Shown here one piece after another: positions 2,489 through 16,008 of a stretch of 64,000 bases of DNA. Position 1 is the first letter of the stretch. Each line of letters starts with the position of its first letter. The DNA is from Patescibacteria group bacterium (GTDB taxonomy: Bacteria > Patescibacteriota > Minisyncoccia > UBA6257 > UBA9933). The position numbers were made by a program, and so were the translations under genes. The stretch spans positions 11,980 to 75,979 of the forward strand of contig JASEIG010000002.1 of the NCBI GenBank assembly GCA_030017615.1. Reading direction: 5' to 3'. Under the pieces are notes generated by a model. That model saw only the letters and a program-made list of their open reading frames with translations. It was not told where the DNA came from and ran no database searches.

Positions 2489-3751
2489 ATGAATAAATTT
2501 CTTCAAATTTTTAAAATTAAGGATATTAGAACTAAAGTTTTAATAGTCGCCGGTTTATTGGTGGCGACGCGCGTTTTAGCCGCAATCCCGATTCCAGGAA
2601 TTGACGCTTTAAAATTAAAACAGTTTTTTGATACAAACCAGCTTTTTAATTTTTTGGGTTTAATGGCGGGCGGCGCTATGAGCAATCTTTCAATTGTGAT
2701 GCTTGCAATCGGGCCGTATATCACGGCGACGATTATTATGCAACTTCTAACAATGATCTTTCCGAAATTGAAAGAAATTTATTATGAAGAAGGCAGCGCC
2801 GGCCGGGCAAAATTTAACAGATATTCTCGTTTGCTTACCGTGCCGCTGGCGGCTTTGCAAGCGTACACTTTTTTAAATCTTCTGGCTTCGCAAGGGGTCC
2901 TTTCATATATGAATCGGTTTGACACGATTAGGGACGTTATAATTATTACCGCGGGTTCTATGGTAATGATGTGGTTGGGTGAAATTATCACCGAACAAAA
3001 AATAGGAAACGGAATTTCTCTGATAATTTTTGCCGGTATCGTGGCGCAATTGCCCGACACAATCGGAAGGATTATCAAAACTTATAACCCGTCCGAATTG
3101 CTTACTTATATCGCATTTGCGGCTGTTTCAGTTCTTGTTATCGCGGGTGTGGTGTATATAAATGAAGGTGAAAGAAAAATTCCTGTTTCATATGCAAAAC
3201 AGGTGAGAGGAAATAAAATGTACGGCGGGGTTTTAAGCTATCTCCCAATTAAAGTAAACCAAGCTGGAGTTATTCCGATAATTTTTGCGATTTCAGTTTT
3301 GCTTTTCCCGCAGTTTTTAGCTCAGGTAAGCGCGGTAATTTCCAAAGGTTTTTCGTTAAAATTAACCGGCTTTGTAACCGCCTTTTTAAATAATCAGTAT
3401 ATTTACACCATTATTTATTTTATACTGGTGGCGTTATTCACGTATTTTTATACCGCGGTTACTTTTGACCCAAGCGAAATTTCAAAAAATCTTCAAAGAT
3501 CGGGGGGTTTTATAACAGGAATAAGGCCGGGACAATCAACTACGCAATTTTTAGGGAAAATTATAAATAGAATTACTTTTTGGGGCGCGGTATTTTTGGG
3601 ATTAATCGCGATATTGCCGAATCTTTTGCGAATCATTACCGGAATTCCGGTTTTGACTATCGGAGGGACGGCGATCTTGATTGTGGTGTCGGTGGCTTTG
3701 GAAACTTTGAGACAAATTGACTCACAACTTGTTATCAGAGCGTATGAGTAA
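2489..3751 (+). CDS. secY: preprotein translocase subunit SecY
   Basis: Ten TM helices and conserved SecY plug/hinge regions. Sits after rplO. Confidence 0.92.
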   Translation: MNKFLQIFKIKDIRTKVLIVAGLLVATRVLAAIPIPGIDALKLKQFFDTNQLFNFLGLMAGGAMSNLSIVMLAIGPYITATIIMQLLTMIFPKLKEIYYEEGSAGRAKFNRYSRLLTVPLAALQAYTFLNLLASQGVLSYMNRFDTIRDVIIITAGSMVMMWLGEIITEQKIGNGISLIIFAGIVAQLPDTIGRIIKTYNPSELLTYIAFAAVSVLVIAGVVYINEGERKIPVSYAKQVRGNKMYGGVLSYLPIKVNQAGVIPIIFAISVLLFPQFLAQVSAVISKGFSLKLTGFVTAFLNNQYIYTIIYFILVALFTYFYTAVTFDPSEISKNLQRSGGFITGIRPGQSTTQFLGKIINRITFWGAVFLGLIAILPNLLRIITGIPVLTIGGTAILIVVSVALETLRQIDSQLVIRAYE

Positions 3752-3872: not shown

Positions 3873-4589
3873 ATGAAAAAATTATCTAAAATCGCGATAA
3901 TAATTTACGGAGTGCCCGGATCGGGAAAAGGAACCCAAGCAAAACTTTTGGCGGATAAATTTGGTTTATTCCAGTTTGATACGGGAGATTACTTAAGAAA
4001 AATATTTAAAGACTTAAGGTTTAAAAAAAATAAAGAGATTCAGAAAGAAAAGAAATTAAACGAATTTGGAAAATTAAATTCTCCGGAATGGGTGTTGAAA
4101 ATTGTCAGCCAAAAAACAAAAGAATTGTCCGAAAACGGAGAATCGGTTGTTTTCAGCGGTTCGCCCAGAACTTTATTTGAAACTTTTGGAAATAATAAGA
4201 AAGCGGGATTAATGAAAATTTTAGAAAAAGAATATGGAAAAAATAATATCTATATTTTTGTGCTGGATATTCTGGAAGAAGAATCAATAAAACGCAATTC
4301 AAACAGATCGGTTTGCTCGATCTGCAAAACTCCGTTAATGGGCCAACAATTCCGACGCAAGGTTGGAATCAAAAATCAACAACCAAAAATTTGCCCTTTT
4401 TGCGGCGGGAAAATAGAACACAGAATTGACGATAAAAAAAATATTATTACGGCAAGATTGAAAGAATATCAAATAAGAACCCAGCCGATTTTCACTGAAC
4501 TTAAAAAGAAAAAATACAAAATTTTCCATATTGACGGGATGCCGTCCCCGTATAAAATTCACGAAAAAATAATTTCTTATTTTAAATGA
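3873..4589 (+). CDS. adk: adenylate kinase with a zinc-binding LID (CxxC...CxxC) and an extra insertion in the NMP-binding domain
   Basis: P-loop GVPGSGKGTQA; LID cysteines CSIC...CPFC; stop overlaps the map start (ATGA). Confidence 0.88.
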   Translation: MKKLSKIAIIIYGVPGSGKGTQAKLLADKFGLFQFDTGDYLRKIFKDLRFKKNKEIQKEKKLNEFGKLNSPEWVLKIVSQKTKELSENGESVVFSGSPRTLFETFGNNKKAGLMKILEKEYGKNNIYIFVLDILEEESIKRNSNRSVCSICKTPLMGQQFRRKVGIKNQQPKICPFCGGKIEHRIDDKKNIITARLKEYQIRTQPIFTELKKKKYKIFHIDGMPSPYKIHEKIISYFK

Positions 4590-11626: not shown

Positions 11627-13453
11627 ATGAATTCGCGAGAATTAAGAGAAAAATTTTTTGATTTTTTTAAAAAACGTGGGCATACGATTGTAAAATCTTC
11701 TTCTTTAATCCCTGACGATCCGTCGGTTCTTTTAACGACCGCAGGGATGCAGCAATTTAAAAAATATTACACCGGTGAACTTGACGCTATGGACAGTTTC
11801 GGTTCGCAAAGAACCGTTTCAATACAAAAAAGTTTTCGGACAAGCGATATTGAAGAAGTGGGCGACGAAACTCACCTCACTTTTTTTGAAATGTTTGGTA
11901 ATTTTTCATTTGGACCAGTCGGAACGGACAACCCGGAAGACACCGGAAAAATCGGGTATTTTAAAAGAGCGTCAATTTATTGGGCGTATGAATTTATTAC
12001 CAATATTTTAGAAATTTCCGAAAATAGAATTTACGTGTCTGTTTTTGCCGGAGATAAAGAAATTTCTTTTGACCAAGAATCTTATGATATTTGGAAAAAC
12101 GAAATAAAAATTCCTGAAAACAGAATTTTTAAAGGGTCTCGGCAGGATAATTTTTGGGGACCCACCGGAGAAGAAGGGCCATGCGGGCCGTCAACGGAAA
12201 TTTATATCACGCCTTCCGCCGCCGAAGCTGAAGCGGGCAAGGGAGTGGAAATCTGGAATATCGTTTTTAACGAATTTTACAAAAATAAAATCGGAATTTA
12301 TCAAAAAACCGAAAATCTGGGAGTGGATACGGGGATGGGTATGGAAAGACTAGCTGTAATATTACAAGGAGTTAATAATGTTTTTGAAACCGATTTATTC
12401 GTTTCTATTATGGCTAAAATCAATGAATTAACTCCGTCTGCGGACAATAGAATTAAAAGAATCTTGGCGGACCATTTAAGAGGCGCTATATTTTTAGTTG
12501 CTGACGGAGTTTTGCCTTCCAATAAAGAAGCTGGATATGTATTAAGAAGACTACTGAGAAGAATTTTAGCTTATCAGATTGTAAACGACATACATGCCGA
12601 TTTATTTGCCGAAAGCGTGGAAATAATAAAAAATAATTTCGGAGAATTTTATCCCGAATTAAATAAAACAAAAGAAATTCTGAACGTTTTAGAAGAGGAA
12701 AAAGTAAAATTTGAAGAAACAATCGGCAGGGGAATACGTGAAATTGAGAAATACAAAGAGAGCGGAAAAGAAATCAGCGGAAGCGAAGCGTTTTATTTAT
12801 ATGAAACTTTCGGACTGCCGTTTGAATTAATTAAAGAATTGGCGCCGTCCAAATTAACCGCAAATTTAAACAAAGCGGATTTTGACAGGGAATTTGAAAA
12901 ACATCAGGAAATTTCACGAGCGGGAGCCGAAAAAAAATTCGGCGGACACGGATTGATTTTTGACACCGGAGAATTAAAAGCGGCAACCGAAGAAGAAATG
13001 AAAAAAGTTATACGCCTGCATACCGCCACTCATTTATTACAATGGGCATTGCGGCAAGTTTTAGGAAACGAAGTAAAACAAATGGGTTCAGATATTACTT
13101 CTGAAAGATTGCGTTTTGATTTTTCTTTCGGAAGAAAAATAACTCCGGAAGAAATTAAACAGGTTGAAAATTTAGTAAATGAAAAAATTAATCTAAATCT
13201 TCCCGTTTACTTTGAAGAAATGAGTAAGGAAGAAGCGGAAAAATCGGGCGCGCTGGCGTTTTTCAGGCAAAAATATCCGTCTGTGGTTAAAGTTTATTTT
13301 ATCGGTTTCAAAGCGAGCGGAGAAATAATCAGCAAAGAACTTTGCGGAGGTCCGCACGTGGAATATACATCCGAGATTGGAAAGTTTAAAATAATTAAAG
13401 AAGAATCGGTGGGAATGGGTATCAGAAGAATTAAAACGATACTCAGCAATTAA
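11627..13453 (+). CDS. alaS: alanyl-tRNA synthetase, short form (catalytic, tRNA-recognition and editing domains; no C-Ala domain)
   Basis: N-terminal motif FFKKRGHTIVKSSSLIPDDPSVLLTTAGMQQFK; editing HxxxH (HTATHLL) and CGGPHV; 608 aa against about 870 typical. Confidence 0.85.
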   Translation: MNSRELREKFFDFFKKRGHTIVKSSSLIPDDPSVLLTTAGMQQFKKYYTGELDAMDSFGSQRTVSIQKSFRTSDIEEVGDETHLTFFEMFGNFSFGPVGTDNPEDTGKIGYFKRASIYWAYEFITNILEISENRIYVSVFAGDKEISFDQESYDIWKNEIKIPENRIFKGSRQDNFWGPTGEEGPCGPSTEIYITPSAAEAEAGKGVEIWNIVFNEFYKNKIGIYQKTENLGVDTGMGMERLAVILQGVNNVFETDLFVSIMAKINELTPSADNRIKRILADHLRGAIFLVADGVLPSNKEAGYVLRRLLRRILAYQIVNDIHADLFAESVEIIKNNFGEFYPELNKTKEILNVLEEEKVKFEETIGRGIREIEKYKESGKEISGSEAFYLYETFGLPFELIKELAPSKLTANLNKADFDREFEKHQEISRAGAEKKFGGHGLIFDTGELKAATEEEMKKVIRLHTATHLLQWALRQVLGNEVKQMGSDITSERLRFDFSFGRKITPEEIKQVENLVNEKINLNLPVYFEEMSKEEAEKSGALAFFRQKYPSVVKVYFIGFKASGEIISKELCGGPHVEYTSEIGKFKIIKEESVGMGIRRIKTILSN

Positions 13454-13463
13454 TAAACAAAAT

Positions 13464-13850
13464 ATGATAAAAACAATTATAAAATTTTTTGACAAATTAG
13501 AAGACAAAGTAAGAGAAAAATTAAGTCGCAAGCCGATTTTATACGCTTTAGTTGGAAGCATCGGTATAATTTTATTATGGCGTGGCGTTTGGCATCTGGC
13601 TGACGATGTCGGAATGTCCAGTTGGATATCTGTGATTTCAGGAATTTTAATACTTCTTTTGATAGGATTGTTTGTTTCATTTTTTGTCGGAGAACAAACG
13701 ATTATAAGCGGAATTAAAGCCGAACGTAAAATTGACGAAAAAACCGAAGAAGAAATTAAAAAAGAAGCCATTACACTGGAAGAATTACACGAAGACATTG
13801 AAGAAATAAAAGATAAAATAGGAATTCAAAAAAACAAAGAAAACAAATGA
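13464..13850 (+). CDS. hypothetical two-TM membrane protein with charged C-terminal tail
   Basis: ORF with two hydrophobic helices and a K/E-rich tail; no recognisable family. Confidence 0.4.
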   Translation: MIKTIIKFFDKLEDKVREKLSRKPILYALVGSIGIILLWRGVWHLADDVGMSSWISVISGILILLLIGLFVSFFVGEQTIISGIKAERKIDEKTEEEIKKEAITLEELHEDIEEIKDKIGIQKNKENK

Positions 13851-13915
13851 TTTTGCCTTGAAAATTATTCGTGTTTTGATAAACTGTAAAAGTTAAAAAA
13901 ATAAAATAAAAACAT

Positions 13916-13990
13916 TCCGCGGTAGCTCAATGGTAGAGCAACGCCCTGTTAAGGCGATGGTTGTAGGTTCGAGTCCTACCCGCGGAGCCA
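13916..13990 (+). tRNA. tRNA-Asn (anticodon GTT), CCA encoded
   Basis: Cloverleaf folded by hand: acceptor TCCGCGG/CCGCGGA, D GCTC/GAGC, anticodon stem ACGCC/GGCGA with loop CTGTTAA, T-stem GTAGG/CCTAC, T-loop TTCGAGT. Confidence 0.85.
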
Positions 13991-14009
13991 AAGAATACGA
14001 TGCGAACTT

Positions 14010-14043
14010 CCGATTTTCCGAAAAAATCGGATTTTCGTTTTTT
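14010..14043 (+). terminator. hairpin CCGATTTT/AAAATCGG plus T-run right after tRNA-Asn
   Basis: Inverted repeat and T-tract read directly. Confidence 0.6.
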
Positions 14044-14137
14044 AGGGACGATTGTTCAACCCAGCCCCGCCTTCGCCAAAGATACGGACGGATAAGGAAA
14101 TGGGGACGAAAGGGGTAATAAGTGATAAAATGGAGTT

Positions 14138-14614
14138 ATGAGAATAAATAATTTTTTCAAATTGGTTATTGCGATTGTGGTGTCGGAAGCGGCCGGAATT
14201 ATCGGGTCGTTTTTTACGATCTCGGCAATTCCAAATTAGTGATCAATACTTGTGAAGTCGGCGTTGAATCCGCCTGCTTAGGTATTCGGTCCCGCGTGAA
14301 CAACGCTTTATGCGTTGATGGGTATCGCCGCATTTTTGATATGGCGCATGGGTTGGAAACGGAAAGAGGTAAAAGCGGCGCTTGGCGTGTTCGGTATCCA
14401 GCTTTTCTTAAACGCTGTTTGGTCAATTATTTTCTTTGGTTTGCAAAATCCTGGCTGGGCACTCGTTGATATCGTGGCACTCTGGTTTGCAATCGTTTGG
14501 ACGATGGTTGTTTTTTATAAAATCTCGAAGCCAGCCACATATCTTCTCGTGCCGTATATTCTTTGGGTAAGTTTCGCCATATATTTAAACTACACGATCT
14601 GGGCTTTAAATTGA
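14138..14614 (+). pseudogene. tspO: TspO/MBR (tryptophan-rich sensory protein) pseudogene with four in-frame nonsense codons (TAG, TGA, TAG, TGA) at conserved Trp positions
   Basis: Continuous-frame translation MRINNFFKLVIAIVVSEAAGIIGSFFTISAIPN**SILVKSALNPPA*VFGPA*TTLYALMGIAAFLIWRMGW...LNYTIWALN aligns to the TspO consensus ...WY..L.KP.W.PP.WVFGPVWT.LY.LMG. About 159 codons total. GC visibly higher than the flanks. Confidence 0.75.
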
Positions 14615-14620
14615 AAAAAA

Positions 14621-15085
14621 ATGACCACATACAAACACACTCAAATTGGGTATCTGATGCTGATTGTCTTACTGGTCGTGCTGGTTCTCTTTGTATGGAT
14701 GCAAATTACAGCCCGCGCCGAGCCTCCCTCGTACTACTCCGGCACAAATTTTGCCATTACTGCCATAATGGCATTGATTCTGTTTATTCTTGCATCGTTT
14801 ACAACACTGACAACATCCATTGACGAAAACTATCTTCGGATCAAGTTTGGCTATGTCATATTTCGCAAAAAATTCTCGGCAAGTGAGATTGTGTCAACGG
14901 CACAGGTAAAAAACCATTGGTATTATGGCTGGGACATACGGCTGTGGTTTTGGCCGCGGATGTGGATTTTTAATGTTTCCGTTTTTGACGCGGTTGAAAT
15001 TCGAATGAAGAACGGAAAAATCTACCGGATCGGAACGGATGAACCGGAAAAACTTGAGACCGCGATTAAGCAAGTCATAAGTTAA
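14621..15085 (+). CDS. hypothetical membrane protein on the GC-rich island (PH/bPH-like C-terminal region possible)
   Basis: ORF with two TM helices; GC-rich; followed by a GC-rich perfect palindrome. Confidence 0.45.
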   Translation: MTTYKHTQIGYLMLIVLLVVLVLFVWMQITARAEPPSYYSGTNFAITAIMALILFILASFTTLTTSIDENYLRIKFGYVIFRKKFSASEIVSTAQVKNHWYYGWDIRLWFWPRMWIFNVSVFDAVEIRMKNGKIYRIGTDEPEKLETAIKQVIS

Positions 15086-15089
15086 GTAA

Positions 15090-15111
15090 ACCTGCCTGCC
15101 GGCAGGCAGGT
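15090..15111 (+). terminator. perfect 22-bp GC-rich palindrome ACCTGCCTGCCGGCAGGCAGGT followed by a T-rich tract
   Basis: Read directly; located 5 nt after the stop codon of the 14621..15085 ORF. Confidence 0.6.
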
Positions 15112-15426
15112 CACGCCAAGCGTTTATTTTTATTCAAACCGGTTGGTAGTAGTGGAAACCTGGTGAAACAAGCTCGTGTCTGCGGCACAAAGCTCGCCAC
15201 AGGGGCAATTAGAGGGCAACGACGGGTTGATTGTCTCTTGGCATTCGGCAAGCAGTTGGTTCATATGGGTTAAAATAACGGTGGGATATTTGTATTCTTC
15301 CGCCCAATCAAATGTTCGAAAGTCATCGAGCGGGATGAGTCAAATTGTATGTTGAAAGTTTGTTGCCTTGGCGCTTCGCGCCGTTATATCTGGATTAAAA
15401 AATAAAATTCAGAGATAATTAAATCA

Positions 15427-16008
15427 ATGGATATTTTTTCTCACGGTCTTTGGGCGGGAGCCGCGTATAAAGCTCTTCGGCAAAAGCAAATTCAATATAA
15501 AAATAAAAATCTTTTAAAACCGCTTCAAGCCGCGTTTTGGGGAATTTTCCCCGATATTTTTTCTTTCACGCCGGTTTTTATTTGGCTTTTTGGAAATTTA
15601 GTTTTAGGCACCATTGATTTTCAAAATCTTCCCAAACCTGACGGGATAGAGCCTGCCCAAAAAGATACTTTGCCGATTTTCCGTCTCACTTCAATGCTTT
15701 ATAATGCAAGTCATAGTATTATTATTTTTCTGATTGTGTTTGGTTTTGCGCTGATTATAAAACGGATATTATTTTCCGAAAATCAAATAATGACATGGGA
15801 AATGGGGGCGTGGCTTTTTCATATTTCAATAGATATCCCGACGCACTCCTACCAATTCTATCCCACACCGTTTTTATGGCCAATTTCCGACTGGAAATTT
15901 AACGGATTTTCTTGGGGAACTCCATGGTTTATGATTATTAATTATTCGGCGCTTGCGGTTGTTTATATTATTTTAAGTAAAAAAATATCTGTTAAGAATA
16001 GGCAATGA
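15427..16008 (+). CDS. membrane-bound metal-dependent hydrolase-like protein (DUF457/YdjM-like)
   Basis: N-terminal MDxFSHG and HISIDIPTH His motifs in a polytopic membrane protein; family assignment from memory. Confidence 0.4.
   Translation: MDIFSHGLWAGAAYKALRQKQIQYKNKNLLKPLQAAFWGIFPDIFSFTPVFIWLFGNLVLGTIDFQNLPKPDGIEPAQKDTLPIFRLTSMLYNASHSIIIFLIVFGFALIIKRILFSENQIMTWEMGAWLFHISIDIPTHSYQFYPTPFLWPISDWKFNGFSWGTPWFMIINYSALAVVYIILSKKISVKNRQ

Follow-up and report, generated by a model that had tools for sequence, protein, structure and literature searches.

Clustered nonsense codons in a TspO pseudogene on a small islet downstream of tRNA-Asn in a Patescibacteria contig

Introduction

When a gene retains its full length and its reading frame, and is nevertheless interrupted by stop codons at positions where its relatives have conserved residues, the question arises whether it is dead, recoded or actively silenced. 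We analysed such a case in a stretch of 64,000 nucleotides from a Patescibacteria group bacterium (GenBank assembly GCA_030017615.1, contig JASEIG010000002.1, positions 11,980 to 75,979), hereafter the window, in which a gene of the TspO/MBR family of membrane proteins, located next to a tRNA-Asn gene, carries four in-frame stop codons. A preliminary description of the locus, made from the sequence alone, had seen in these stops four independent G->A hits on a horizontally acquired, GC-rich island, and had considered targeted inactivation, strand-biased deamination or read-through as possible explanations. We find an ordinary pseudogene on a decaying islet, whose sole oddity is that the damage is packed into 21 codons.

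Results

Inactivation of the TspO gene

The gene, its damaged part and the frame that remains open are the following (positions of the window).

14138-14614, plus strand: TspO/MBR pseudogene, 158 codons and a terminal stop, colinear with its homologues and free of insertions and deletions
14237-14299, plus strand: damaged patch, codons 34-54, comprising loop 1 and the start of transmembrane helix (TM) 2, delimited by alignment
14315-14614, plus strand: residual open frame of 99 codons (starting with TTG, then ATG at 14318), comprising half of TM2 and TM3-5, from the list of open reading frames (ORFs)

With its stops masked, the frame matches the Pfam TspO_MBR profile from position 1 to 144 of 145 (E = 1.8e-45), and the protein is 88% identical in amino acids to TspO proteins of the Candidate Phyla Radiation (CPR). 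As had been reported, the frame is of full length and without frameshift, it contains four stops (TAG at codon 34, 14237-14239; TGA at codon 35, 14240-14242; TAG at codon 48, 14279-14281; TGA at codon 54, 14297-14299), and eight TGG codons further downstream are intact (codons 69, 73, 95, 107, 116, 121, 143 and 155). Its terminal stop is a TGA, and the next gene, ORF154, begins six bases later. By sequence inspection, no recognisable Shine-Dalgarno motif precedes the residual frame at 14315.

All four stops had been placed at tryptophan or aromatic positions, each a single G->A step away from TGG. This holds for codons 34, 48 and 54, which are tryptophan in 120/120, 119/120 and 120/120 homologues, respectively, and where one G>A exchange turns TGG into the observed stop, but not for codon 35, which is tyrosine in 120/120 homologues (TAT or TAC in all relatives compared by nucleotide sequence) and was converted into TGA by two adjacent substitutions.

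Two missense changes accompany the stops, so that the patch differs from its relatives by W34->TAG, Y35->TGA, residue 37->Ile (14246-14248), P41->Ser (14258-14260), W48->TAG and W54->TGA; with the stops written degenerate, it reads AATTRGTRATCAATACTTGTGAAGYCG. These six are the only residues of the gene that are unique against 120 homologues, and none is found in the other 137 codons. At the DNA level, 14 bases of the window gene are absent from 16 relatives. Eight of them fall within nucleotides 101-162 and all eight are damaging, the remaining six being five third-position changes and one Ser/Thr swap.

Genetic code of the host

The stops would be harmless if TAG and TGA were decoded in TspO, as tryptophan or otherwise, and three of the four do lie at tryptophan columns of a frame that is otherwise intact. 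The 63 ORFs of the window, however, all end normally, with TAA 46 times, TGA 13 times and TAG four times. As noted before, adk ends in TGA and map in TAG, and these two genes, like greA (TAG), an FtsW-like gene (TGA) and others, terminate at the ends of their Pfam profiles. Coding is dense, ORFs of up to 1055 amino acids run uninterrupted, TspO is the sole interrupted gene against 63 normal ORFs, and no suppressor was found among the five tRNAs of the window. With conserved genes ending in TGA and TAG at profile ends, and with TspO as the only interrupted gene, the genetic code of the host is the standard one, and translation of TspO therefore ends after 33 codons. Moreover, one of the stops replaces a tyrosine, the tandem TAG-TGA and two additional stops make any leak negligible, and no code is known to read both TAG and TGA as tryptophan. 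Recoding or programmed read-through, one of the explanations first considered, is effectively refuted and can be excluded as a reading of these stops. Nonsense codons alone inactivate TspO, which is a true pseudogene.

Tryptophan codons as nonsense targets

That stops arose on tryptophan codons is expected by chance and not surprising, because the 11 TGG codons of the restored gene dominate the nonsense target of this tryptophan-rich protein. They offer 22 of its 69 single-step routes to a stop codon, a share of 32% when unweighted and of 62-74% under a bias for transitions and GC>AT changes.

Dead TspO genes also occur in two further lineages among 89 TspO loci. The gene at L085:460-930, on an unrelated metagenome contig (FWPV01074767.1) and 54% identical to the restored window protein, is interrupted by a single in-frame TGA, which arose from TGG at the column of window codon 48 in an independent event; its other six TGG codons are intact. 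A second case is one allele, present in three different samples (L046:1774-2246, L047:3001-3473 and L048:1357-1829), with a 1-nt deletion near codon 124, which has the appearance of a frameshift pseudogene that became fixed in a population. TspO is thus lost repeatedly, and tryptophan nonsense is a normal route of this loss. The suggested targeted inactivation of a toxic protein had been built on a tryptophan bias that 11 TGG codons produce by chance and that is also seen in L085; the data provide no evidence for it either way.

Clustering of the lesions

All six damaged codons fall within codons 34-54, a span of 62 nt. Among 110 constrained columns, five of the 16 inside this span are struck versus none of the 94 outside (Fisher P = 3.6e-5), and in a span scan the probability of finding lesions within at most 21 codons is 8e-4 for five random constrained columns and 1e-4 for six random codons. 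Outside the span, the gene retains the look of one under selection. Every constrained residue is kept in codons 1-33. In codons 55-158, the ratio of nonsynonymous to synonymous divergence (dN/dS) is 0.04-0.06, the median of pairs of functional relatives being 0.077. Lesion clustering is non-random, and uniform neutral decay is rejected. The earlier observation that the damage is confined to the first third of the gene survives to this extent, since the stops do lie there and their clustering (P ~1e-4 to 8e-4) is not random, but the supposed independence of the hits is unsupported.

If the closest allele types are taken as ancestral, the patch has acquired three G>A, one or two C>T, one A>G and one T>A in this lineage, to which two G>T have to be added if the common Ala-Gly allele was ancestral. 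They affect both strands and have no common sequence context. Given this mixed spectrum and the two-step change in codon 35, four independent G->A hits are not supported, and neither is a strand-biased deamination, as both strands and differing contexts are involved.

Between four and seven of the patch changes are packed into 11 nt, which, together with the adjacent double change in codon 35, fits a single complex event. The gene is also a mosaic, as its synonymous divergence (dS) from L013 is 0.19 in codons 1-33 versus 1.6 in codons 55-158, and this mosaicism favours recombination of a short patch with a decayed allele. The most likely, albeit unproven, cause of the clustering is a local multi-hit event or the import of a short patch; a single multi-substitution event and short-patch recombination fit the data alike, and we prefer neither.

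Several other candidate causes were discarded. Close TspO relatives mostly carry an in-gene hairpin, ATGCCGG-A-CTT GTG AAG CCGGCGT (L009:1731-1754, equivalent to 14241-14264 of the window), which in intact relatives (ATGCCGG-A-CTT/AAGCCGGCGT) reaches -18.3 kcal/mol (z = -2.5) and of which the window changes destroy both arms. As an explanation it was dropped, because covariation is lacking and synonymous constraint is only slightly lower (0.40 vs 0.50). Avoidance of CCGG restriction sites was rejected, as GCCGGC is kept in a palindrome of the islet (15098-15103), and so was a methylation-motif or deaminase context, as the changed sites share no motif. Regarding a diversity-generating retroelement, no second copy of the patch was found in the 64 kb and the ancestral bases are mostly G or C; no search specific to reverse transcriptases was made.

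A compositionally foreign islet beside tRNA-Asn

The pseudogene belongs to a short islet with the following features and neighbours.

13916-13990, plus strand: tRNA-Asn(GTT), intact, with CCA encoded; left neighbour of the islet (ARAGORN; Rfam tRNA, 71.7 bits)
14009-14044, plus strand: terminator-like hairpin and T-run after the tRNA, host DNA (terminator scan)
14066-14137, plus strand: conserved 72-nt leader of the TspO unit (blastn)
14621-15085, plus strand: ORF154, open frame of 154 codons, with two predicted TM helices and a predicted PH-like domain
15090-15111, plus strand: perfect GC-rich palindrome of 22 nt, followed at a distance of about 12 nt by T-rich sequence (15123-15134)
15133-15405, minus strand: decayed 3' coding fragment, ...ILFFNPDITARSAKATNFQHTI*LIPLDDFRTFDWAEEYKYPTVILTHMNQLLAECQE..CPCGELC..
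15369-15383: hairpin GGCGCTTCGCGCC (terminator scan and repeat search)
15427-16008, plus strand: gene of a YdjM-like membrane protein, host DNA and right neighbour of the islet, identical to GenBank MDI6717535.1 (QMD86_00575)

The tRNA-Asn(GTT) gene ahead of the islet lies where it had been placed. The islet begins about 55 nt past it, at approximately 14045-14065 and directly behind the hairpin and T-run, homology to other TspO loci setting in at 14066 (blastn), and it measures only 1.36 kb. Its leader is 87.5% identical to the stretch immediately 5' of TspO in L013, with matches in L023 and L077 as well. With 43.6% GC, positions 13991-15420 form the most GC-rich 1430-nt segment within the 64 kb (mean 36.8%, standard deviation 2.5% for segments of this size), and the GC content at third codon positions of TspO (0.48) and ORF154 (0.50) is about four standard deviations above that of the other window genes (0.342 +/- 0.038, maximum 0.434). 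The islet DNA is compositionally foreign, and the GC-rich island recognised by eye is real, but it is less pronounced than the 45-50% against 33% estimated at that time.

The nearest relatives of TspO and ORF154 (88-90% amino-acid identity) are spread over many CPR lineages and unrelated gene neighbourhoods, a distribution that shows their ancestry to be mobile, while the differing dS along TspO shows it to be mosaic. Composition and scattered relatives both speak for the foreign origin that had been proposed. A repeat search (seed 7) detected no direct copy of the tRNA 3' end in 13850-15500. The string formerly taken for a degraded attR is no such repeat; it lies inside the conserved fragment at the right end and encodes D-D-F-R-T-F on the minus strand. 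No integrase or recombinase ORF is present among the ORFs of 13991-15426, which include only the decayed fragment of about 90 codons with its weak link to recombinases, and Rfam recognises the tRNA alone in 13800-15600. In other loci, tRNA-Asn is the left neighbour of ORF155 (L007) or lies 860 nt ahead of a TspO gene (L063), and 57 of 60 TspO loci scanned have no tRNA close by. Small GIY-YIG-type ORFs flank the pair of tRNA-Asn and ORF155 in L007 on both sides (3150-3470 and 4152-4403).

Three further proteins of the flanks are identical to GenBank entries from an 83-kb contig of a Patescibacteria group bacterium MAG (metagenome-assembled genome), namely the alanine-tRNA ligase (MDI6717532), a 128-amino-acid protein (MDI6717533, QMD86_00555) and a DUF4015 protein (MDI6717536). 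The alanine-tRNA ligase (11627-13453; annotated as alanine--tRNA ligase in MDI6717532.1) has only 608 amino acids; bacterial enzymes of this kind typically have about 870, and the C-terminal part of the window protein appears to be missing. A genome-collection scan with the YdjM-like protein yielded a best identity of 54%, no synteny with tRNA-Asn and no empty site. Exact-protein look-ups with ORF154, the YdjM-like protein, TspO fragments of 99 and 98 amino acids and P0241 retrieved no contigs.

ORF154, the partner gene

ORF154 is an intact second gene of the islet that is absent from the preliminary description. Its family is confined to the CPR, comprises more than 2300 homologues and has no Pfam model. 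The window copy carries two exchanges, G105D (14933-14935) and G121V (14981-14983), each unique among 120 homologues, at columns occupied by glycine in 119/120 and 120/120 of them. Since two invariant glycines are lost, selection on the unit as a whole appears to be relaxed.

In each of three ORF154 loci fetched, a TspO-domain gene lies within 3.5 kb of the ORF154 homologue (L006:2085-2552, L007:3583-4050 and L008:5001-5465), and no ORF154 was found near TspO in 80 TspO loci with flanks of up to 3 kb. Including the window, ORF154 is located beside or at most 3.5 kb from a TspO-domain gene in all four loci, an arrangement that suggests a functional partnership. Also near ORF154 homologues, long proteins of 316 amino acids (L007:7132-8082) and 340 amino acids (L008:3393-4415) combine a TspO_MBR domain with extra sequence. 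A scan of viral contigs with ORF154 returned no relatives.

A decayed gene fragment at the right end

The right part of the islet contains the 22-nt palindrome and the hairpin near 15370 that had been noticed before. It had also been called gene-less, and this is not the case, as its minus strand holds a decayed coding fragment. The palindrome, which is unlisted by the terminator scan, would be a terminator-like hairpin of the TspO-ORF154 unit; 18-23 nt of it are present once in L012, 5' of the TspO gene of this locus.

The fragment lacks a start codon and is interrupted by a TGA (15340-15342). Homologous pieces lie beside TspO or ORF154 in L008, L027, L064/65 and L013: positions 15128-15324 are 72.6% identical to L008 DNA right after the ORF154 homologue, and are also matched directly 5' of TspO in L027 and L013. 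Because the differences between these copies are mostly synonymous in the minus-strand frame, the fragment was formerly coding, and a conserved RNA at 15128-15345 was rejected, since the window and L008 copies differ mainly at third codon positions of that frame.

Its motif is rare, being found in only 36 cluster representatives of 1.8 billion, always C-terminally and behind unrelated N-terminal parts; the proteins that end in this tail have the motif string ...WLALLNDFRTFDWAEEYKYPTV.... In one protein with such a tail, P0364, the N-terminal part shares 63% identity with the end of an L033 ORF that matches PHROG 95 'integrase' (E = 3e-3). The fragment could be what is left of a gene that formerly lay beside the cassette or mobilised it, perhaps one for a large recombinase, of which it would be the tail; this assignment is weakly supported. 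Searches with the fragment and with its relatives in Pfam and NCBIfam were negative, as was a tblastn search with the L033 ORF in phages and plasmids, and a scan of viral contigs with P0364 revealed no relatives. The same rare tail (LALLNDFRTFDWAEEYKYPTV...) stands at the C-terminal end of unrelated short ORFs, at 15133-15405 (minus strand) of the window as well as at L008:5531-5842, L027:2815-2946 and L064:577-819, and, in some contigs, after the apparent termini of recombinase genes. The tail may flag a junction formed by recombination of a CPR mobile element.

Discussion

The stretch from about 14045 to 15405 is probably what remains of a small cassette that was acquired horizontally and is decaying, with a dead TspO gene whose lesions stem from a localised event. 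The cassette occupies the space between tRNA-Asn and the YdjM-like gene, in the order leader, TspO, ORF154, terminator-like palindrome and a leftover of a gene that formerly flanked it. TspO would have been hit by one localised multi-substitution event, which could be a patch of error-prone repair or recombination over a short stretch with an allele that had already decayed, and four independent hits would fit the lesions less well. What we infer here is how the cassette arrived and why the lesions cluster.

Several observations weigh against this account. No reads, sister genome or empty site were found, the closest other YdjM homologue reaching just 62% identity, and the insertion as such is therefore presumptive, as are the timing of the hits and their order. 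The islet has neither an integrase gene nor att repeats, no second TspO copy or patch donor was found in the 64-kb window, and the recombinase-tail label depends on the PHROG match of a related ORF at E = 3e-3. Furthermore, the conserved codons 1-33 and 55-158 would also fit ongoing selection on those parts, and because the distal part has its nearest sampled relative at a dS of about 1, dN/dS is of limited value for its recent history.

Such ongoing selection is the core of an alternative in which TspO has become a split gene, with a 33-codon TM1 peptide (14138-14239) and a 99-codon distal product (14315-14614) that are both made and selected, and a neutral linker of codons 34-59. The distribution of unique residues, with none in codons 1-33 and 55-158 versus six in 34-54, would agree with this, as would the low distal dN/dS and the TTG and ATG start candidates directly past the last stop; also, the change density of the patch (about 12%) resembles the synonymous divergence from the nearest 5' relative (dS 0.19-0.34), so that no hypermutation would be needed. 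Nevertheless, we consider a split gene unlikely. A restart at codon 60/61 halves TM2 and drops the conserved ligand-binding loop, it has no Shine-Dalgarno-like sequence ahead of it, and the architecture occurs in none of 88 other TspO loci examined; the likely partner gene, ORF154, is also damaged at two invariant glycines, and no split TspO is known. Little credence can likewise be given to an assembly or consensus artefact, in which the stops would exist on no real molecule, for instance in a mis-polished or chimeric low-coverage consensus of a metagenome-assembled genome (MAG). The sequence does come from one MAG contig, and no reads or second assembly of the lineage were found. Yet the remaining 64 kb are clean, with uninterrupted ORFs of up to 1055 amino acids, eight substitutions within 62 nt and no indel would be required, and ORF154 is damaged too; the GenBank numbering has space for no more than one protein between tRNA-Asn and the YdjM-like gene, and the depositors' pipeline may also have seen a broken TspO.

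A different kind of explanation invokes enzymes. A cytosine deaminase acting as toxin, defence or host function could have turned TGG into TAG and TGA on newly acquired DNA, and three such conversions with one or two C>T changes within 62 nt, together with the non-random clustering, are what might be expected from it. We regard this as very improbable, because one strand bears both G>A and C>T without coordination, the patch includes A>G and T>A as well, the sites have different contexts (two TTGG, one GGA, one GCC), and eight other TGG codons as well as the GC-rich rest of the islet are untouched; three stops among five GC>AT transitions are not significant given the bias (P ~0.04-0.09, own calculation). 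The broader idea that the clustered TGG->stop changes are the scar of a base-changing process by which a host or competitor activity silences incoming DNA, modifying or deaminating a short exposed stretch of the cassette, is scarcely credible either. The clustering is compatible with it, but the spectrum is mixed and the strands are uncoordinated, which speaks against it.

Our results thus provide a clean negative: stops that lie only at tryptophans follow from codon arithmetic in a tryptophan-rich gene, and not from recoding, read-through or a deaminase. They also suggest that TspO, the PH-like ORF154 and a short conserved gene tail travel jointly between CPR genomes as small mosaic cassettes, which are lost repeatedly. 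If the clustering of lesions recurs in many CPR pseudogenes, local multi-hit mutation or micro-recombination could be a common route of gene death in these bacteria.

Comparison with known systems

Searches of the literature on TspO in Patescibacteria and on clustered tryptophan nonsense in bacteria returned nothing of direct relevance, and the closest parallels come from better-known systems. Among the CPR TspO proteins (PF03073), P0006 of Candidatus Kuenenbacteria RIFCSPLOWO2_12_FULL_42_13 is an example that resembles the window protein in its 158 amino acids, in 83-88% amino-acid identity, in a full-length profile match and in a tryptophan-rich first loop. In Rhodobacter TspO, the first loop consists of 22% tryptophan (review, PMC4237140). 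Unlike these proteins, the window copy is interrupted by four stops and carries two radical replacements in loop 1 and TM2, and it cannot give rise to the protein.

The islet resembles tRNA-linked islands in its position 3' of a tRNA, in its deviant GC content overall and at third codon positions, in cargo that is scattered over lineages and in a possible recombinase scrap at the far end. It differs from them in having no integrase gene and no attL or attR derived from the tRNA end, and in its size of 1.36 kb. With regard to the mutations, APOBEC3G causes G->A hypermutation in retroviruses that turns TGG into TAG, and mutation showers are transient local hypermutation. The likeness lies in the conversion of tryptophan codons into stops and in the close spacing of the substitutions; in contrast to both, however, the window changes are not strand-coordinated, have no motif, include transversions and A>G, and cover 62 nt only.

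A further parallel is offered by the nonsense pseudogenes of small or reduced bacterial genomes. For Chlamydia trachomatis, the title of one report describes independent inactivation of arginine decarboxylase genes by nonsense and missense mutations (PMC2720952). In a similar way, the window TspO was hit by point substitutions without indels, and its family was killed independently in the window, in L085 and in L046-48. Pseudogenes of this type usually carry one lesion or scattered lesions, whereas in the window TspO several lie within 21 codons.

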